Shown: positions 1 to 5,895 of the stretch, piece after piece
Position numbering within the stretch: position 1 is the stretch's first letter
Layout of the letters: every line of letters begins with the position of its first letter
Virus record (IMG/VR): IMGVR_UViG_3300045988_005371
Location: 1 to 5,895 of that record
Source of the DNA: a virus
Direction: 5' to 3' (one strand)
Length of the DNA: 5,895 bases
The notes under the pieces: generated by a model
Seen by the model: only the letters and a program-made list of their open reading frames with translations
What the model was told of the DNA's origin: nothing
The model's database searches: none
Position numbers and translations under genes: made by a program

Positions 1-99
1 ATTTTTTTTTTTTATACTGAAAACAGTTAAACAGCACAAAAGTGCTCTTTTACAAAACCATTTATACAAAAATAATTTTTAGGAGGTATATGCTCTGAC
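1..99. repeat. Terminal direct repeat, copy A (identical to 5797..5895); overlap from linearising a circular genome
   Basis: Base-by-base comparison: A + T12 + ATACTGAAAACAGTTAAACAGCACAAAAGTGCTC...AGGAGGTATATGCTCTGAC is present at both ends. Position 1 corresponds to 5797. Confidence 0.95.
81..98 (+). promoter_or_regulatory. Consensus Shine-Dalgarno AGGAGG (81-86) followed by a two-codon mini-ORF ATG-CTC-TGA (90-98)
   Basis: Read directly. The ATG lies only 3 nt after the SD and the stop comes after one sense codon. Confidence 0.5.
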
Positions 100-214
100 T
101 CTCAAAGAAATTAACGCGCTGTTTAGCAACATCCGCAAAATCTTAGCCATGTTGGATAAGATTTACCACGCAGTAGAGGGCAACAAGCCCGAGGAGAAAA
201 CAATGAAGCCCTAG
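95..214 (+). CDS. Hypothetical 39-aa protein with putative non-canonical CTG start (LTLKEINALFSNIRKILAMLDKIYHAVEGNKPEEKTMKP)
   Basis: The frame is open from 83 to TAG 212-214. CTG 95-97 sits 8 nt after AGGAGG. The first in-frame ATG (149) has no SD. The amino-acid pattern looks like an amphipathic helix. Start codon and coding status are unproven. Confidence 0.25.
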   Translation: MTLKEINALFSNIRKILAMLDKIYHAVEGNKPEEKTMKP

Positions 215-250
215 AAATAAACAATAAACAACAAGTCCGAGGTGTAAACA

Positions 251-478
251 ATGAAGGGAAAAACATGGAACGTAAGAGACCAGACCGATACGAACCTTTT
301 GGAAGAACTGACGAGAACCTACAAGGAAATCGACAGCGCATACAAACTGCTACGACAGGCCGCAAAGTACAACGACGCAAAATACTACCTTGACATGGTG
401 TTCAGAAAAAAAGCAAAAGCAACAGAAATCGAGGTAGAAATCCTCAGAAGGGAAGTAAACCATGGGAAAGAGGAATAA
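251..478 (+). CDS. Hypothetical protein, 75 aa, predicted helical and charged
   Basis: ATG start at 251 with GAGGTG 6 nt upstream. It is co-oriented with and overlaps the next gene by 17 nt. I recognise no family. Confidence 0.6.
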   Translation: MKGKTWNVRDQTDTNLLEELTRTYKEIDSAYKLLRQAAKYNDAKYYLDMVFRKKAKATEIEVEILRREVNHGKEE

Positions 479-581
479 AGTCCGCAAGTCCAAAGACGCA
501 AAAATCTACAACAAGACCGCACGAAAAACAAAAGCAATCAACCTTGGCAGCGGAGCAATGCGAGGAGGCATTAGATTATGA
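462..581 (+). CDS. Small highly basic DNA-binding/packaging protein (J / VP8-like), 39 aa: MGKRNKVRKSKDAKIYNKTARKTKAINLGSGAMRGGIRL
   Basis: Below the ORF-track length cutoff, so translated by hand. It has 13 K/R and 1 acidic residue in 39 aa. As I recall, the C-terminal RGGIRL is typical of gokushovirus small basic proteins. Its stop overlaps the next start as ATGA (578-581), and it sits directly before VP5/VP3. Confidence 0.7.
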   Translation: MGKRNKVRKSKDAKIYNKTARKTKAINLGSGAMRGGIRL

Positions 582-817
582 TTAACGTGTATGGCATCTA
601 CGACCAGTGTGCTATGTGCTACATCACCACCATTAACGAGCGCGACGATAAAGTCGCCGAACGCAATTTTAAAATTGCACTGACCGACGAACACAACATC
701 ATGAGCAAGACACCGAGCGACTACCGACTCGTGAGGCTCGCAAAGTTCGACGAGAACAACGGCACTTTTGAAGAAGCAAAGGAGAACATTTTCGATGGCA
801 TTTCGCTCAGTAAGTAA
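578..817 (+). CDS. VP5: VP5-like non-structural protein (gokushovirus ORF5 family), 79 aa
   Basis: GAGGAGG lies 9 nt upstream of the ATG. The layout (short N-terminal beta-like segment, A-x-R-x-F, then P-x-DY-x-L-x-x-L-x-x-FD-x-x-x-G-x-F) matches what I remember of Chlamydia-phage-type ORF5 proteins. Its position between the basic protein and VP3 is canonical. Confidence 0.65.
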   Translation: MINVYGIYDQCAMCYITTINERDDKVAERNFKIALTDEHNIMSKTPSDYRLVRLAKFDENNGTFEEAKENIFDGISLSK

Positions 818-1304
818 CTTCAGAGAAACCAGAACAGCAAAACCAACCGAAGCCGGAGAAAGCGTAAGGCGCACGTACATTTGGGACATCAACGAAAAAG
901 GCGAAAAAGTGCTGAAACTCGACCAGATCATTGACCAACAGGCAGAAATCGACTCCTACTTGGAAGAAACCAAGCTGGAAAACATCATCCGACGGGCAAG
1001 CATCGACCCGAACATCGCGGCGCGAATCGCGCCAGACTTAGGCGGAGGAATTCAAGATTTTACCGAAGCACCGCATACACTCGCGGAAATACAAAACATC
1101 ATGATTCGCGCAGAACAAATCTGGAACGAGGTGCCAAAAGAAATCAAGCTCAAATTTGACAACGACGTGGACAAGTTTATCTCAAGTTTCGGAAGCGTCG
1201 AATGGGCCAAAAACCTTGGTATTATGACGGAAGAGACACCTAAAGAAGAACCCAATCGGAGAGTAGAGACTAGCAAAATAACGAAAACCGAGGAGGAAAA
1301 ATGA
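795..1304 (+). CDS. VP3: VP3 internal scaffolding protein, 169 aa from the first ATG
   Basis: The track ORF begins at a TTG (768). The first ATG is at 795 with AAGGAG 11 nt upstream. The segment DFTEAPHTLAEIQNIMIRAEQIWNEVPKEIKLKFDNDVDKFISSF resembles the conserved gokushovirus scaffold core. The stop overlaps the VP1 start (ATGA 1301-1304). Confidence 0.8.
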   Translation: MAFRSVSNFRETRTAKPTEAGESVRRTYIWDINEKGEKVLKLDQIIDQQAEIDSYLEETKLENIIRRASIDPNIAARIAPDLGGGIQDFTEAPHTLAEIQNIMIRAEQIWNEVPKEIKLKFDNDVDKFISSFGSVEWAKNLGIMTEETPKEEPNRRVETSKITKTEEEK

Positions 1305-3001
1305 ACAGAAACACAGACGCAGGATTTAATCAGGTCCCAAGACTGGACATCACGCGAAGCCGCTTTAAAAGGCGGCAGAACGTAAAACTAACCATGAACG
1401 CCGGACAACTCATCCCGTTTTATGTGGATGAGGTGCTTCCGGGCGATACCTTTAGTGTCGACCAGGCGGCAATCATCCGCATGACAACCCCTATCTTCCC
1501 AGTCATGGATAACTGCTACATGGACATCTATTACTTTTTCACGCCGAACCGCATTCTGTGGAAAAACTGGAAGCGATTTATGGGCGAAAATGACACCGGG
1601 CCGTGGGCACAAAAACAAGAATACACAATCCCGCAAATCAAAGTCCAAGAAAGCGCCGGCAAAAAAGAATTGCCGCTGGAAGGCAGCCTCATGGATTACA
1701 TGGGAATCCCGACGAAAGTATGCAAGGACAAAAGTACAGAATTCGAAGTAAACGCACTGCCATTTAGAGCTTACGCAATGATATGGCAAGAGTGGTTCAG
1801 AGACCAAAATGTAGATAATCCGGCTATTAACAGCGTCGAAGACGCAACAGTAACCTACGCAGACGCCAACGACCCAAAAAACATTGAAAAACTCCTTCAG
1901 GAAGCATATCGAGGCGGCAGACCATTACCAGTAAACAAATTTCACGACTATTTCACCAGCGCACTGCCGAATCCGCAGAAAGCGGGAGAGCCAGTAAGCA
2001 TTCCGCTTAGCGGAAGTGCACCGCTAGGAATGTACAATCCGTCAACAGGAAAAGTAACAATCAACAGCGCCGAAATGAAACAAATCGCAAAAGATGTAGG
2101 ACTGTTAAACTCAGGCAGCACCTTTAACGCCGCAGATTGGGACGTCGGAGACGGGCCAGTTGCAAACAACGGACTGGCAGTGGGAAAAAATACACAGTCC
2201 ACATACACTGGAATAACCTTAGGAGCAGACCTCTCAATGGTCAACGCAACGACTATCAACCAGCTGCGACAGGCGTTTCAAGTACAAAAGTACTACGAAC
2301 AGTTAGCACGAGGCGGCAGCCGATACCGCGAGATGATTTATTCGCTGTTCCATACCAAAATCAGCGATAAAACTGTACAAATCCCGGAGTATCTGGGCGG
2401 TACGCGCATCACAATCAACATGAGCCAGGTAATCCAGACCAGCGGCACAACAGCTGAAAGTCCGCAGGGCAACACGGCAGCAGTATCCGTTACACCGTAC
2501 AACGGCAGTATGTTCACCAAGAGCTTCGAAGAGCACGGCTTTGTTATCGGTGTATGCTGCATCCGGCATGACCATACTTACCAGCAGGGACTCGAACGAA
2601 TGTGGAGTCGGAAAACCAATCTGGATTTTTATTATCCCGTCTTTGCAAATCTGGGGGAACAAGCAATCCTCAAAAAGGAAATCTATCTGAGCGGCACAGA
2701 AAAAGACGAACAGGCATTCGGATACCAAGAGGCATGGGCAGAATACCGCATGAAACCGAACAGAATAAGCGGCAAATTCCGAAGCAACGCAACAGGAACG
2801 CTGGATAGTTGGCACTATGGCGACTATTACACCGAAGCGCCGAGCTTAAGTCAAGCATGGATGAAGGAAGGAGACTCTGAAATCCAGAGAACACTCGCAG
2901 TAGACAACGAACCTCAATTTATCATGGACACGGTCATTGACAACACCAGTGTCAGACCTATGCCTATGTACAGTATTCCGGGTCTCGTAGACCATCACTA
3001 A
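1301..3001 (+). CDS. VP1: VP1 major capsid protein (Microviridae F-type jelly roll), 566 aa
   Basis: AGGAGG lies 4 nt upstream. Hallmark motifs are present: N-terminal RSRF...N.GQLIPFYVDEVLPGDTF, then TINQLRQAFQVQKYYEQLARGGSRYREMIYSLF, and a YQEAWAEYR-type C-terminal region. Confidence 0.97.
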   Translation: MNRNTDAGFNQVPRLDITRSRFKRRQNVKLTMNAGQLIPFYVDEVLPGDTFSVDQAAIIRMTTPIFPVMDNCYMDIYYFFTPNRILWKNWKRFMGENDTGPWAQKQEYTIPQIKVQESAGKKELPLEGSLMDYMGIPTKVCKDKSTEFEVNALPFRAYAMIWQEWFRDQNVDNPAINSVEDATVTYADANDPKNIEKLLQEAYRGGRPLPVNKFHDYFTSALPNPQKAGEPVSIPLSGSAPLGMYNPSTGKVTINSAEMKQIAKDVGLLNSGSTFNAADWDVGDGPVANNGLAVGKNTQSTYTGITLGADLSMVNATTINQLRQAFQVQKYYEQLARGGSRYREMIYSLFHTKISDKTVQIPEYLGGTRITINMSQVIQTSGTTAESPQGNTAAVSVTPYNGSMFTKSFEEHGFVIGVCCIRHDHTYQQGLERMWSRKTNLDFYYPVFANLGEQAILKKEIYLSGTEKDEQAFGYQEAWAEYRMKPNRISGKFRSNATGTLDSWHYGDYYTEAPSLSQAWMKEGDSEIQRTLAVDNEPQFIMDTVIDNTSVRPMPMYSIPGLVDHH

Positions 3002-3011
3002 GAAAGGGGGA

Positions 3012-3041
3012 AGACCCGGGTTTTCCCGGGTCTATTTTATT
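3012..3041 (+). terminator. GC-rich hairpin plus U-rich tail after VP1 (attenuator or partial terminator)
   Basis: AGACCCGGG (3012-3020), TTTT loop, CCCGGGTCT (3025-3033) form a perfect 9-bp stem, followed by ATTTTATT up to the VP2 ATG. Confidence 0.5.
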
Positions 3042-3848
3042 ATGGCGTTAGCAGCAATCGGAAGCGCACTACTCGGAATCGGTAAACAACTGCTCCCGAC
3101 AATCGCCGGAGGTCTCATAAACAAATTCATGGGCGGAAATCTGACAGAGAGCAACGGAGGAAGCCAGCAACACAACCAAAGCTACAGCCAAGGCGGAGGC
3201 CAAAGCAGCAGCGAAAGCGGCGTAAACCGAGCACAAAATCTGCAAGACTGGAATAGCATGCTAGGAGCAATTCAGGGAAACATGCAAAGCCAGCAGAAAT
3301 TTAACCGTCGAAGCATGTTCGAACAGATGGGCTACAACACCATGGCAGCAATCACACAAGGTGTATATAACCAGATAAGTAACAATGCAGCGATGAGCTA
3401 CAACAGCGCAGAGGCGGCAAAAAATCGTGCATGGCAAGAGCAAATGAGTAACACAGCATATCAAAGAGCAGTGGAAGATATGCGTAAAGCCGGCATCAAC
3501 CCAATCCTAGCATACCAGCAAGGCGGAGCAAGTACGCCGGGTGGAGCACAAGGCACTATTAGTGGGGCAAGCATGGGACTGGCGAGCAGTAGTGCAGCAA
3601 GCGCAAGTGCTCTAGGAGTAAGTCAAAACCACAACAACACATGGAGCAGGAGCGAAAGTAACTGGTACAACGCAGCACAGGCGGTCGGAGACGCAACAAG
3701 CTGGAGTCATACAAGTGCAGACAAGGCGCTGAAGGAATTCAGAAACGTCCTTAGCAGCCTCGACAACTTAGGAAATCAAGGCGGCCAATACAATCATCAA
3801 AATGGCGGTGGCAAAACTCACGGCGGCGGCGCAGGAAGAGGAAGGTAA
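3042..3848 (+). CDS. VP2: VP2 minor capsid / DNA pilot protein, 268 aa
   Basis: Hydrophobic N-terminus (MALAAIGSALLGIGKQLLPTIAGGLI). Q/S/G-rich low-complexity segments. Conserved motif MSNTAYQRAVEDMRKAGINPILAY typical of gokushovirus VP2. Located right after VP1. Confidence 0.85.
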   Translation: MALAAIGSALLGIGKQLLPTIAGGLINKFMGGNLTESNGGSQQHNQSYSQGGGQSSSESGVNRAQNLQDWNSMLGAIQGNMQSQQKFNRRSMFEQMGYNTMAAITQGVYNQISNNAAMSYNSAEAAKNRAWQEQMSNTAYQRAVEDMRKAGINPILAYQQGGASTPGGAQGTISGASMGLASSSAASASALGVSQNHNNTWSRSESNWYNAAQAVGDATSWSHTSADKALKEFRNVLSSLDNLGNQGGQYNHQNGGGKTHGGGAGRGR

Positions 3849-3849
3849 A

Positions 3850-4869
3850 ATGGGATGCAATAAACCATTAATCCGGTTTTATGTACCTCACGACAGAGAA
3901 GCGAGTGGGCGAGTATACTCACTCGCTTCTTTTAACAAAATACATAAGACAAACCTTAGGTATGAAGACCTAATGTACAGAAAAGATGTAATGTTGATAC
4001 CGTGCGGACAATGTACCGGATGCAGACTACGCAAGCGCAAAGATTGGTCAACGCGGATGGAACTAGAAGCATATGGACACAACAAAGAAAGTATCTGGTT
4101 TATCACACTAACTTACGATGATGACCATGTACCAACACAGGACACAAATACAGGCGAAATCTACAAAGGCGGCATAAACATCTGGGAAGGCCTCTCAGAG
4201 CGTCCGAGAACGGCGCAAACTCTAAGCGTAGAGGATACCCAACTATTTATAAAAAGGCTCAGAAAGGCCGTCAAAGAGCCTCTGAGATACTTTTTAGCAG
4301 GAGAGTACGGAGACAACACAGCGAGACCGCACTATCACATGATACTATATGGGTGGTATCCAGACGACTTAAAGCCAATTCACAAATTGTCAAGACACGG
4401 TCATTATACAAGCGATAAGCTAGTAAAAATCTGGGGACAGGGTGCAGTTGACATAGCGCAAGCAACCCCAGAAACATATAATTATGTTGCAGGGTATGTA
4501 ACCAAAAAGCTGTACGGCAACGACAAAAAACGTTACCAAAAAATGGGTTTAATACCACCATTTTGCACAATGAGCCGAAAGCCGGGACTCGGGGACAAGT
4601 GGTTCGAAGACAACCAAACAAGACTCTGGCAGCAAGGGTACATACAACTTACCAACGGCAAGAGAGCGACAATACCAGAATACTATTGGCGGAAACTGGA
4701 AGCCGAAAACCCTGAAAAAGCATGGAGAATCAAGAAGAATCGACAAGAAAAAGCTATAGCGTCCTTAATCGAAAGAAACGCGGAAACCGATAAACCATAC
4801 GCAGAACAGTTAAAAGACAAAGAAGCATCCATGTCGAAGAAAATGAGCAAAGCCAAAGGCGTATTTTGA
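3850..4869 (+). CDS. VP4: VP4 replication initiation protein (HUH rolling-circle endonuclease), 339 aa from ATG 3850
   Basis: Cys cluster PCGQCTGCR (Cys52 at 4003). Motif 1 FITLTY. HUH motif HYH at 4330-4338. Catalytic motif YVAGYVTKK (Y212/Y216/K219, 4483-4506). ATG 3850 follows the VP2 stop by 1 nt and has a GGAAGAGGAAGG purine tract upstream. The 3802 start would overlap VP2 by 47 nt. Confidence 0.95.
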   Translation: MGCNKPLIRFYVPHDREASGRVYSLASFNKIHKTNLRYEDLMYRKDVMLIPCGQCTGCRLRKRKDWSTRMELEAYGHNKESIWFITLTYDDDHVPTQDTNTGEIYKGGINIWEGLSERPRTAQTLSVEDTQLFIKRLRKAVKEPLRYFLAGEYGDNTARPHYHMILYGWYPDDLKPIHKLSRHGHYTSDKLVKIWGQGAVDIAQATPETYNYVAGYVTKKLYGNDKKRYQKMGLIPPFCTMSRKPGLGDKWFEDNQTRLWQQGYIQLTNGKRATIPEYYWRKLEAENPEKAWRIKKNRQEKAIASLIERNAETDKPYAEQLKDKEASMSKKMSKAKGVF

Positions 4870-4879
4870 CACTTTGGTG

Positions 4880-4929
4880 TCACTCAGCCAAGTAACTATC
4901 AAGTAAGCTACTTGGCTGAGTGATTTTTT
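4880..4929 (+). terminator. Strong rho-independent terminator after VP4
   Basis: Perfect 15-bp stem: TCACTCAGCCAAGTA (4880-4894) pairs with TACTTGGCTGAGTGA (4909-4923). The loop is 14 nt and is followed by T6 (4924-4929). Confidence 0.85.
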
Positions 4930-4941
4930 AATTTGTTAAAT

Positions 4942-4981
4942 GCACACGCACGCGCACGTAATCGCGCACGCGCACGTGCAT
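4942..4981. repeat. Two GC-rich alternating purine-pyrimidine tracts containing a 13-nt direct repeat CGCACGCGCACGT (4947-4959, 4965-4977)
   Basis: 4942-4959 and 4963-4981 alternate purine and pyrimidine without interruption. They are bracketed by ATGCAC (4940-4945) and GTGCAT (4976-4981) and embedded in AT-rich sequence. Confidence 0.8.
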
Positions 4982-5010
4982 TATATTATTATTTTTATTA
5001 TTAACTTGTT

Positions 5011-5026
5011 GTAGTAGTAGTAGTAG
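5011..5026. repeat. (GTA)5 trinucleotide microsatellite
   Basis: GTAGTAGTAGTAGTAG read directly. It lies after an ATT/TTA-rich run at 4981-5004. Confidence 0.9.
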
Positions 5027-5037
5027 GGAGTGTTGAA

Positions 5038-5121
5038 ATGTTGAATACTACGAATTTTTATCCTTGGAACGATATTTTTTGGTTAATCTTAATGTTGATA
5101 CTTTTGTGGAAAACTTGTTGA
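5038..5121 (+). CDS. Candidate 27-aa hydrophobic micropeptide MLNTTNFYPWNDIFWLILMLILLWKTC
   Basis: ATG 5038 has GGGAG (5026-5030) 7 nt upstream and the stop is TGA 5119-5121. The segment IFWLILMLILLW is membrane-like. The ORF lies inside the repeat array downstream of a strong terminator, so it may be fortuitous. Confidence 0.25.
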   Translation: MLNTTNFYPWNDIFWLILMLILLWKTC

Positions 5122-5186
5122 ATTGTTGAAAGTGTAGCAATATGCACAAAAACCTTTGTGCAACATTTTGTGGAAAACCTGTTGAA
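5102..5186 (+). repeat. Two 21-nt direct repeats TTTTGTGGAAAAC(T/C)TGTTGAA (5102-5122 and 5166-5186)
   Basis: 20 of 21 positions are identical and the copies are 64 nt apart. Each contains TGTGGAAAA, whose complement TTTTCCACA fits the relaxed DnaA-box consensus TT(A/T)TNCACA. Confidence 0.85.
5143..5162. other. Perfect 8-bp hairpin TGCACAAA-AACC-TTTGTGCA between the 21-nt repeats
   Basis: All 8 pairs were checked. The loop is AACC. Alternative TTTGTG partners exist at 5103-5108 and 5167-5172. Confidence 0.7.
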
Positions 5187-5325
5187 AGTGTTAAAAGTGT
5201 TGAAAAAAGAATTAAAGGCCGTCCGGCAAGCAAAACCGAAAAGTTGCGTCATGCTCTTCGCACGGCGCACCGCGCCTAGCGCATGACCTTCAAGACAAAA
5301 TTCTTCTATTTTTTTTTAAAAAACC

Positions 5326-5354
5326 TTGACTTTTTCCAAAAAATATGATAGAAT
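5326..5354 (+). promoter_or_regulatory. Near-consensus sigma70/sigmaA promoter with extended -10 (TTGACT, 17 nt, TGaTAGAAT)
   Basis: -35 TTGACT at 5326-5331. The spacer is exactly 17 nt. TG is at 5346-5347 and -10 TAGAAT at 5349-5354. A T9A6 UP-like element sits at 5309-5323. A perfect TATAAT also occurs at 5354-5359. Confidence 0.75.
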
Positions 5355-5356
5355 AT

Positions 5357-5373
5357 AATCAAAGAAAGGAAGG
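5357..5373 (+). repeat. 17-nt leader repeat AATCAAAGAAAGGAAGG, copy 1 (contains the SD of ORF 5381)
   Basis: Identical to 5567-5583. Confidence 0.9.
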
Positions 5374-5380
5374 AATTAAA

Positions 5381-5560
5381 ATGAAGCAAAAGGAATACAA
5401 GTTCTTGGCAAAAATCACCTACAACGACGGCAAAGAAGAGTTAAATCCTTTTATCGACTACACGGCAAGCGCAAGAGCGCGAGCCAAAAAAGTAGCAAGG
5501 AGACCAGACGTATACACAGTAAAACTATACAGGATAGACAAAACCGAAGAATTTATCTAA
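5381..5560 (+). CDS. Hypothetical accessory protein, 59 aa (MKQKEYKFLAKITYNDGKEELNPFIDYTASARARAKKVARRPDVYTVKLYRIDKTEEFI)
   Basis: ATG 5381 has an AAGGAAGG SD upstream. The track start at 5345 lies inside the promoter -10 region. It is the first gene of a unit bounded by a promoter and a terminator. I recognise no family. Confidence 0.7.
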   Translation: MKQKEYKFLAKITYNDGKEELNPFIDYTASARARAKKVARRPDVYTVKLYRIDKTEEFI

Positions 5561-5566
5561 AGACTG

Positions 5567-5583
5567 AATCAAAGAAAGGAAGG
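5567..5583 (+). repeat. 17-nt leader repeat AATCAAAGAAAGGAAGG, copy 2 (contains the SD of ORF 5592)
   Basis: Identical to 5357-5373. Confidence 0.9.
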
Positions 5584-5591
5584 CAACAAAA

Positions 5592-5783
5592 ATGAAAAAG
5601 CCTAAACTAAACGAAAAAACCATCACAAGACTCGAAATCTACGGACAAGTATGGTGCAACAAATATTACTACGAGCTGAAAGACTACATAGACACAGAAG
5701 GAAACCGTTACACGATGCTTGAACGGACAAATCTTAGAACCGGAGGCATAGACGAATTCAATTGGGAAGAATACATTAAATAG
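5592..5783 (+). CDS. Hypothetical accessory protein, 63 aa (MKKPKLNEKTITRLEIYGQVWCNKYYYELKDYIDTEGNRYTMLERTNLRTGGIDEFNWEEYIK)
   Basis: ATG 5592 has the same AAGGAAGG SD upstream. The TAG stop lies inside the terminator stem. I recognise no family. Confidence 0.7.
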   Translation: MKKPKLNEKTITRLEIYGQVWCNKYYYELKDYIDTEGNRYTMLERTNLRTGGIDEFNWEEYIK

Positions 5784-5809
5784 GCTTGACAAGCCTATTT
5801 TTTTTTTTT
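5778..5809 (+). terminator. Rho-independent terminator of the two-ORF cassette
   Basis: TAGGCTT (5781-5787), GAC loop, AAGCCTA (5791-5797). Flanking A/T pairs extend the stem to 10 bp. It is followed by T12 (5798-5809). Confidence 0.75.
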
Positions 5810-5814
5810 ATACT
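5786..5814 (+). promoter_or_regulatory. Putative main-operon promoter TTGACA, 17 nt, TATACT, overlapping the terminator
   Basis: Consensus -35 TTGACA at 5786-5791 spans the hairpin loop. The spacer is exactly 17 nt and is mostly the T-tract. -10 TATACT is at 5809-5814, equal to 13-18 in the first repeat copy. It points into the gene block that starts at the 81-86 SD. Confidence 0.6.
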
Positions 5815-5895
5815 GAAAACAGTTAAACAGCACAAAAGTGCTCTTTTACAAAACCATTTATACAAAAATAATTTTTAGGAGGTATATGCTCTGAC
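5797..5895. repeat. Terminal direct repeat, copy B (identical to 1..99)
   Basis: See copy A. Confidence 0.95.

Follow-up and report, generated by a model that had tools for sequence, protein, structure and literature searches.

A putative DnaA-dependent unwinding module adjoins a candidate Rep origin hairpin in the long noncoding spacer of a gokushovirus genome

Why does a small phage genome keep a long noncoding stretch directly behind its Rep gene? We examined this question in the virus record IMGVR_UViG_3300045988_005371 of IMG/VR (positions 1 to 5,895, all of which is referred to here as the window). Its first and last 99 nucleotides are identical. Therefore, the window represents a circular genome, of 5,796 nucleotides. 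All of its genes are on the + strand, and they form a gokushovirus gene set. Phages of this group rank among the most abundant in the gut, and almost none have been cultured. The stretch in question, positions 4870 to 5380, follows the VP4 (Rep) gene and takes up 511 nucleotides, or 8.8% of the circle. A first-pass annotation, made from the sequence alone, had described it as a spacer of 511 nucleotides (about 9%) between a terminator and a promoter. This description holds, with a hairpin and a T-run on one side and a sigma-70-type promoter on the other. The reading that we favor, with moderate confidence, is that the spacer is a replication-control region that combines a putative Rep origin hairpin with a captured, DnaA-dependent unwinding module.

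The module spans about 215 nucleotides (about 4981 to 5206), and its left part is laid out like the core of a bacterial chromosomal origin. It begins with an AT-rich tract that is a candidate DNA-unwinding element (4981 to 5004, + strand, all A/T) and that runs into a near-invariant AACTTGTTG (5003 to 5011, + strand). Together, positions 4981 to 5011 form the sharply defined left end of the module and are 95 to 100% conserved across 158 sequences. Next comes (TAG)5, also readable as (GTA)5, at 5012 to 5026 on the + strand. It had been called a microsatellite, and it corresponds to five DnaA-trios (3'-GAT-5'). A 4-nucleotide GGAG spacer (5027 to 5030, + strand) separates it from two tandem 9-mers on the + strand, TGTTGAAAT (5031 to 5039) and TGTTGAATA (5039 to 5047). 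Their starts are 8 nucleotides apart, and they are the counterparts of a trio-proximal pair of DnaA boxes. GC content is 0.29 across 5000 to 5150. The three triplets nearest the boxes read TAG-TAG-TAG in nearly all of 147 genomes scored, and the second triplet of the run varies among TAG, TCG, CCG, ACG, and GAG.

The same arrangement is found in real origins. A blastn search of a plasmid collection, which was not aimed at origins, returned two short matches near position 1,450 of Firmicute replicons that start with dnaA. One of the two replicons is annotated, and there the match is inside the dnaA-dnaN spacer. The window aligns column by column with Priestia megaterium and Acetoanaerobium noterae, as an AT-rich stretch, (TAG/TAA)5-6, GGAG or GGGC, and two 9-mers 8 nucleotides apart. 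After the AT-rich part, P. megaterium has TAGTAGTAGTAATAG, GGGC, and TGTGGAAA-TGTGGATAA; A. noterae has TAGTAGTAATAGTAATAG, the identical GGAG, and TGTTGATT-TGTGGATAA; and the window has AACTTGTTG, TAGTAGTAGTAGTAG, GGAG, and TGTTGAAA-TGTTGAATA. Positions 4981 to 5011 align with the AT-rich unwinding elements of both dnaA-dnaN spacers. When a profile of the phage module was run against the two 3-kb loci, its best matches were these dnaA-dnaN sites (E = 3e-7 and 8e-4 in 6 kb).

This layout has been described as the basal unwinding system, in which tandem DnaA boxes are followed by a short GC spacer, three or more DnaA-trios (3'-GAT-5'), and an unwinding element and in which the orientation of the proximal boxes is essential (PMC8287927, PMC6669920). 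The Clostridioides difficile origin has the same layout (PMC7561715). DnaA-trios have been defined (PMC8287927, PMC7561715), and the rule is at least three consecutive NAN triplets with a preference for 3'-GAT-5', which is 5'-TAG-3' (PMC8287927). The published box rule allows up to two mismatches to TTATCCACA within 16 bp of the trios and usually has a second tandem box with up to four mismatches. In the window, the trios are (TAG)5 at 5012 to 5026, the spacer is the 4-nucleotide GGAG, the boxes are oriented as in both bacterial origins, and the AT tract beyond the trios is less structured than its shuffles. The family consensus, TGTGGAAAA (one mismatch) with AGTTGAAAA, passes the box rule. 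As in the basal unwinding system, which includes DnaA boxes 6 and 7 in the dnaA-dnaN spacer of Bacillus subtilis and other Firmicutes, the parts have the same order and relative orientation, with further boxes beyond. There are also differences. The window element is in a 5.8-kb rolling-circle phage and not beside dnaA, so it is not in the chromosomal location that the published definition includes. Most of its boxes are TGTTGAAAN rather than TGTGGATAA, all are in one orientation and packed at 8 to 9 nucleotides, and the element is fused to the invariant AACTTGTTG.

Beyond the proximal pair are eight further DnaA-box-like 9-mers, spread over 5093 to 5206 in the same + strand orientation, and position 5206 is the right end of the module. 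They start at 5093 (TGTTGATAC), 5105 (TGTGGAAAA), 5116 (TGTTGAATT), and 5124 (TGTTGAAAG) and then at 5169 (TGTGGAAAA), 5180 (TGTTGAAAG), 5189 (TGTTAAAAG), and 5198 (TGTTGAAAA). A small hairpin or palindrome (5143 to 5162) lies between the two clusters, and in each cluster a canonical TGTGGAAAA box leads weaker TGTTGAAAN boxes. The window therefore has ten TGT(T/G)GAAAN units, all on one strand, which an earlier reader had seen as GTTGAAA heptamers. The 21-nucleotide repeat (5102 to 5122 and 5166 to 5186, 95% identical) is one strong box, 2 nucleotides, and then weaker boxes in the same direction, a layout that recalls the arrays of low-affinity sites in Escherichia coli oriC. Across the 147 genomes there are 9.3 units per genome with the consensus TGTTGAAAA; of 1,218 units, 1,031 have T at position 4, 182 have G, 5 have A, and none has C. 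Matches to TTWTNCACA with at most one mismatch come to 4.9 per module in this orientation versus 0.39 in the other; the window has 19 such matches, 5 of them within the module.

The G form is concentrated at particular sites. Among the 158 sequences, the trio-proximal box (5031) has G at position 4 in 87, and it is TGTGGAAAA in 41 genomes. The TGTGG form occurs at box 5105 in 60 (44 of them a perfect TGTGGATAA), at box 5169 in 69, at 5180 in 20, and at the other six positions in 0 to 8. Canonical TGTGG and TGTTG thus swap at the same sites of a constrained element, so one ligand probably reads both. Because the canonical box form is found at these shared sites, that ligand would be DnaA.

We assembled relatives of the window from IMG/VR by VP4 (80 genomes) and by a conserved 24-mer (more than 100), giving 180 distinct genomes including the window. 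The module was found by its profile in 177 of them, and the other three are linear contigs not shown to be complete. Close relatives (VP4 85 to 96%) keep everything from 4870 to about 5300 at 84 to 95% DNA identity. Where VP4 identity is 56%, only the hairpin and a block at 4996 to 5206 are kept, at 73 to 79%. Where protein identity falls to 30 to 40% for VP4 and about 42% for VP1, the module still has a median DNA identity to the window of about 71%. Its ends are sharp, with TATA-AACTTGTTGTAG at the left and GTGTTGAAAAC at the right, and the flanks vary by lineage. The first-pass annotation had judged a neutral spacer of this size unlikely and had proposed comparison with related microviruses as a check. 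Such a comparison bears it out. The region is neither absent nor hypervariable; a hairpin and a module of about 215 nucleotides are kept, as sharply conserved blocks with about 70% DNA identity where Rep has about 35% protein identity.

The module also appears to move. Five genomes with VP4 identity of about 43% (L087, L095, L096, L141, and L183) have a module that is 92 to 95% identical in DNA to positions 4994 to 5207 of the window. The right-hand GC island is equally identical in these genomes, and the hairpin is different. A near-identical module beside so divergent a VP4 indicates that the module has been exchanged between lineages by recombination. We also looked for the unwinding-system pattern in 69 diverse gokushoviruses, Chp2, SpV4, and phiMH2K, and it was found only in members of this module family. 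This suggests a clade-specific acquisition.

The module has the same orientation as the genes in 132 genomes and is inverted in 27. There are three arrangements. In the window, it is downstream of VP4 in gene orientation. In a clade with VP4 identity of about 35% (for example, KT264784), it is directly upstream of VP4 and inverted. In a third set, the position downstream of VP4 is kept, but the module is flipped in place between unaltered flanks. Inversion of the module alone was seen in L063, L124, L148, L176, L082 (MG945447), and L084 (KT264801). These inverted modules lie between a purine-pyrimidine tract and ACGCGCAC. The two form an inverted repeat, and the flips could reflect recombination between its arms or active inversion. 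The left half of the module forms less structure as a single strand than 199 of 200 shuffles do; the right half does not stand out. Because both orientations are tolerated, it is improbable that the module works as a transcript or in single-stranded form. Orientation independence fits a double-stranded, strand-neutral element.

The other conserved component is a hairpin just behind VP4 that resembles a Rep origin. It occupies 4876 to 4929, with its origin-type sequence on the minus strand. The stem (4880 to 4897 and 4906 to 4923) encloses the loop ATCAAGTA (4898 to 4905), and T6 follows (4924 to 4929). The sequence of the region is GGTGTCAC on the + strand and stem-TACTTGAT-stem-GTGACACC on the minus strand. 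The folding energy of the hairpin as single-stranded DNA is -17.1 kcal/mol (z = -7.06 versus shuffles). The loop holds the phiX174 nick octamer TACTTGAT, which in the window's clade is on the minus (antisense) strand. The phiX174 record confirms the sequence CAACTTG^ATATT, with the origin annotated at 4306. Because the loop octamer is the phiX174 cleavage site, this hairpin is the best candidate for the VP4 rolling-circle origin, and a phiX174-type nick is predicted to fall between 4900 and 4899 on the minus strand. The resemblance to the phiX174 viral-strand origin (CAACTTG^ATATTAATAAC..., cut by protein A) includes the octamer (ACTTGATA/TACTTGAT), the position next to the Rep gene, and a Rep in the same HUH family. 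However, the octamer in the window is enclosed as the loop of a stable hairpin, which covaries and is followed by GTGACACC; nothing else of the 30-nucleotide phiX174 origin is present, and the window's clade has the octamer on the complement of the gene strand.

The hairpin is widespread. GGTGTCAC-stem-CTATCAAGTAAG-stem is on the sense strand in 171 of the 180 family genomes, with compensatory changes at 6 of 9 stem pairs and with GTGTCA and CAAG invariant. Its reverse complement, stem-TACTTGAT-stem-GTGACACC, is on the sense strand of Chp2 (2907 to 2938), of five diverse GenBank microviruses, and of 37 of 69 diverse IMG/VR gokushoviruses. SpV4 has a variant on its sense strand (513 to 543) with the loop ATTACTTGTTATA and without the GTGACAC tail. 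In the clade with the module upstream of VP4 (L088, L102, L121, and relatives), the hairpin lies between a Shine-Dalgarno-like GAGGTG and the VP4 start codon, so Rep translation and hairpin formation could be coupled there.

The spacer's left boundary had been labeled a terminator, and positions 4880 to 4923 with T6 do have the form of an intrinsic terminator (a GC-rich stem-loop and then a T-run). A terminator scan missed it because the scan takes loops of 3 to 8 nucleotides and counts at most 20 stem pairs. In the window genome, the hairpin probably also terminates the VP1-VP4 operon. However, many relatives have the hairpin but no T-run, so the hairpin has a role besides termination. The conserved loop, the stem covariation, and the many gokushovirus copies without a T-run speak against a terminator as the full account of 4880 to 4923.

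If the hairpin is the Rep origin, its strand has a consequence for the virion. The window's family, a second clade (L218 to L223), and L259 have it flipped with respect to the genes. We compared third-position AT skew in VP1 among L193, L194, L196 to L200, L201 to L269, and the window. With the hairpin on the sense strand, the median is -0.63 and 3 of 37 values are positive. With the hairpin on the antisense strand, all 11 values are positive (+0.21 to +0.69). The difference has a Mann-Whitney p of 1e-6, which is not corrected for phylogeny, and the flips amount to about three independent events. In the window family, AT skew is +0.26 and GC skew is -0.18, irrespective of module orientation. 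Mirrored skew is the expected product of cytosine deamination on the single-stranded (packaged) strand, and it suggests that the window's clade packages the strand complementary to its mRNAs. Since the skew does not change with module orientation, the hairpin, and not AACTTGTTG (5003 to 5011), appears to define the strand; a role for AACTTGTTG in doing so is unlikely. The pan-gokushovirus hairpin, stem-TACTTGAT-stem-GTGACAC, could serve as a simple marker of the Rep origin and the packaged strand in metagenomic genomes.

How might the two elements work together? In 96 of the 97 complete genomes that contain both, the module points its AT-rich end toward the hairpin, at a median distance of 36 nucleotides in the upstream arrangement and 92 nucleotides in the arrangement of the window. 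From the layout we infer DnaA binding, unwinding, and a link to Rep, as follows. Host DnaA-ATP would bind the boxes on the double-stranded replicative form, polymerize onto the trio (TAG) strand, and melt the AT-rich end. The opened end might then help to extrude or melt the adjoining Rep hairpin, exposing its loop for cutting by VP4. Alternatively, the opening might load the host helicase, so that the replicative form could be copied, and perhaps maintained like a plasmid, in step with the initiation potential of the host. In a cultured gokushovirus, circular phage DNA persists without integration in a pseudolysogenic carrier state (PMC7062461), and the module, if it works in this way, would provide a mechanism for that state. 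It would also be the first host-initiator-dependent origin element reported for the Microviridae, and it is a compact natural variant of the basal unwinding system with which the recognition rules of DnaA-trios could be tested. A broader proposal, which we put forward only tentatively, is that a large gut gokushovirus clade captured a DnaA-dependent oriC core beside its Rep hairpin, with host DnaA then gating replication of the replicative form or its plasmid-like persistence, and that this clade also flipped its Rep origin, giving an mRNA-complementary virion strand ("negative-sense" microviruses). Full-text literature searches found no paper linking Microviridae or gokushoviruses with DnaA boxes and no description of the hairpin in gokushoviruses.

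Several observations count against a DnaA-dependent module. All DnaA boxes described so far have G (C6 of TTATCCACA) at a conserved position that is T in the commonest 9-mer, TGTTGAAAA (the TGTTG form, TGTTGAAAN). With three mismatches each to TTATCCACA, the window's proximal pair, TGTTGAAAT and TGTTGAATA, misses the published rule by one, and only 64 of the 147 family members pass it. (In the real A. noterae origin, too, the proximal box is TGTTGATT.) Against the whole plasmid collection, blastn gave poor E-values (2 to 8). A search of 185,579 species genomes, one per species, gave no matching prophage or host origin. Because the facing of the AT-rich end toward the hairpin rests on two ancestral arrangements and is broken by about six in-place inversions, that rule is suggestive only. 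Furthermore, rolling-circle phages are not known to need DnaA.

We therefore weighed other explanations for the same features. The 9-mers might bind a different protein, from the phage (such as VP5 or VP8) or from the host (a partition or centromere protein, a response regulator, or a nucleoid protein), in which case the likeness to TAG trios would be a coincidence and the module a centromere-like or regulatory platform. The dominant unit, TGTTGAAAA, is indeed not a canonical DnaA box, VP5 matches a PHROG annotated as a DNA-binding protein, and short-repeat centromeres of Firmicute plasmids have similar tandem units with a period of 8 to 9 nucleotides. However, coincidence would have to produce an AT-rich tract, (TAG)n, GGAG, and a pair spaced by 8 nucleotides that match two real origins column by column, and a perfect TGTGGATAA replaces TGTTG at homologous positions. 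The sites are constant even where the phage proteins are down to 35% identity, a pattern that a conserved host ligand fits better. We consider a different ligand unlikely, although it deserves some weight. If the ligand is DnaA, the module might instead be a decoy, with about ten boxes on each copy of the replicative form titrating host DnaA and halting chromosome initiation, as datA and DnaA-box clusters do. The high density of boxes in one orientation and the multicopy replicative form of Microviridae would suit this purpose. But a decoy needs neither trios nor an unwinding element, which are the most conserved parts (95 to 100%), and it leaves the position of the module beside the Rep hairpin unexplained. 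This makes a decoy decidedly improbable.

Two further explanations, which overlap with the roles suggested in the first-pass annotation (cis-acting replication, packaging, or regulation, or a noncoding RNA), concern single strands and gene products. Microviruses need a start for the complementary strand, the region lies between a terminator and a promoter, and the module has strong strand asymmetry in its composition. It could then be a complementary-strand origin (of the phiX174 primosome site, G4 origin, or plasmid single-strand origin type) or a packaging signal. Such origins depend on orientation, whereas the module is found in both orientations, is sometimes flipped alone between fixed flanks, and is less structured than its shuffles; the GC hairpins that flank it would be candidates, but they are not significant. 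We give a single-strand element very little credence, and the same evidence speaks against the packaging option. That the spacer encodes a small protein or a noncoding RNA is barely plausible. Its longest + strand open reading frames have 45 and 42 codons, and so there is none of 60 or more on the coding strand, as had been noted; those on the minus strand have 61 and 70 codons, and neither is conserved. Open reading frames of these sizes (42 to 45 on the + strand and 61 to 70 on the minus strand), and a "hypothetical protein" annotated there in some GenBank relatives, are what favors a protein, yet the frames are not conserved between clades, several genomes lack them, and variability has no 3-nucleotide periodicity (0.158/0.144/0.196). 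The noncoding RNA option found no backing: the best Rfam scores were 15 to 23 bits against thresholds of 40 to 114, with no family near its gathering threshold even at permissive E-values, a tRNA and tmRNA scan of the spacer found none, and no fold was significant. Of the suggested roles, a cis-acting one in replication is likely, given the conserved hairpin and module.

Known replicons offer partial parallels to a DnaA-dependent module. Mobile replicons such as P1 oriR, pSC101, F, RK2, and the R6K A site (ABC primosome) recruit host DnaA through boxes in their origins. The window is likewise a mobile replicon with putative DnaA boxes in its origin region. However, origins of the P1 oriR, pSC101, F, and RK2 type have few boxes, together with 17- to 22-bp iterons for a plasmid initiator, and they have no DnaA-trios; the R6K A site requires a single-strand hairpin with a box in it, and the module has no such hairpin. 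An iteron-type plasmid origin was rejected, since the units are 9-mers with a period of 8 to 9 nucleotides and the 21-nucleotide repeat is a box, 2 nucleotides, and a box. No plasmid-type initiator was found among the genes of the window genome. Spo0A boxes (TGTCGAA), found in phi29 and the Bacillus oriC, differ from the TGTTGAA of the window by one base, and phi29 uses them to couple replication to the state of its host. They were ruled out because the diagnostic C occurs in 0 of 1,218 units. We also looked for a XerC/XerD dif-like site (28 bp, of the enterogokushovirus type). The best match to E. coli or B. subtilis dif was 17 of 28, which is the shuffle mean, and a dif-like site was therefore rejected.

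Which host would supply DnaA? Strong Shine-Dalgarno sites and TTGACA/TATAAT promoters point to a Firmicute-type host, as does the DnaA-type module. A complete 5.7-kb member of the inverted-module clade (L189, CAVKUS010000079.1) was binned into a metagenome-assembled genome labeled Bacteroides sp. CAG:545. This is the only host hint of its kind; it is weak and conflicts with the Firmicute-like promoters and ribosome-binding sites. The GenBank relatives are faecal gokushoviruses of humans, pigs, and monkeys. Other matches were set aside. Besides the Bacteroides-labeled contig, the search of the species genomes gave only a chance 24-mer in a coding region of a 130-kb contig. Matches to Lactococcus and Streptococcus phages were weak and covered only the promoter, and those to Acinetobacter and Enterococcus faecium plasmids look like chance or coding sequence.

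The elements that had been listed in the spacer (purine-pyrimidine tract, microsatellite, heptamers, 21-nucleotide repeats, hairpins, and GC island) are each present, but they are not all separate. The AT tract, microsatellite, heptamers, and 21-nucleotide repeats are parts of one module, and the purine-pyrimidine tract and GC island fold no better than dinucleotide shuffles. The alternating purine-pyrimidine (CG/CA) tract at 4941 to 4980 is an imperfect palindrome with CGCACGCGCACGT twice (z = +0.35 versus the shuffles). It occurs in many relatives and is replaced by other sequence in others, and so it is an optional spacer between hairpin and module. Z-DNA or a cruciform might form there, and the tract may have served as a substrate for the inversions in relatives. 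Tracts of the CGCACGCGCACG type, with 90 to 96% identity over about 30 nucleotides, occur in otherwise unrelated microviruses (Dulem viruses and pig-faeces microviruses), which hints at shared function or convergence. The GC-rich island (about 5217 to 5290) has a GC content of 0.51, versus 0.29 to 0.33 alongside, and weak hairpins, GTCATGC...GCATGAC around GGCGC-ACC-GCGCC (z = -1.18, not significant). It is kept in close relatives, differs in distant ones, and stays put when the module is inverted.

At the right end of the spacer is a sigma-70-type promoter with a TG extension (TTGACT-17-TGaTAGAAT, 5326 to 5354, + strand). It is followed, within 5326 to 5380 on the + strand, by the Shine-Dalgarno sequence AAAGGAAGG; they serve two small accessory genes (5381 to 5560 and 5592 to 5783, + strand) that match no Pfam or PHROG family. 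A comparable TTGAC.../TG.TA.AAT promoter is at the equivalent place in distant relatives. The accessory genes behind it differ between relatives, where replacements include an M15 peptidase, so the slot downstream of the origin region is a variable accessory locus. The remaining genes, all on the + strand, encode a small basic protein (462 to 581), VP5 (578 to 817), the VP3 scaffold (768 to 1304), the VP1 capsid protein (1301 to 3001), the VP2 pilot protein (3042 to 3848), and the VP4 Rep (3850 to 4869). The spacer is not the only long gap. Elsewhere genes had been described as no more than about 40 nucleotides apart, but a second noncoding stretch of about 260 nucleotides spans the junction of the circle (5784 to 5796 plus 1 to 250). 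There, a perfect 10-bp hairpin terminator (5778 to 5800) overlaps the -35 element of the strongest promoter match (TTGACA-17-TATACT, 5786 to 5814). AGGAGG at 81 to 86 is followed by an ATG whose frame stops after two codons, and an open frame of 39 codons would require a CTG start at 95.

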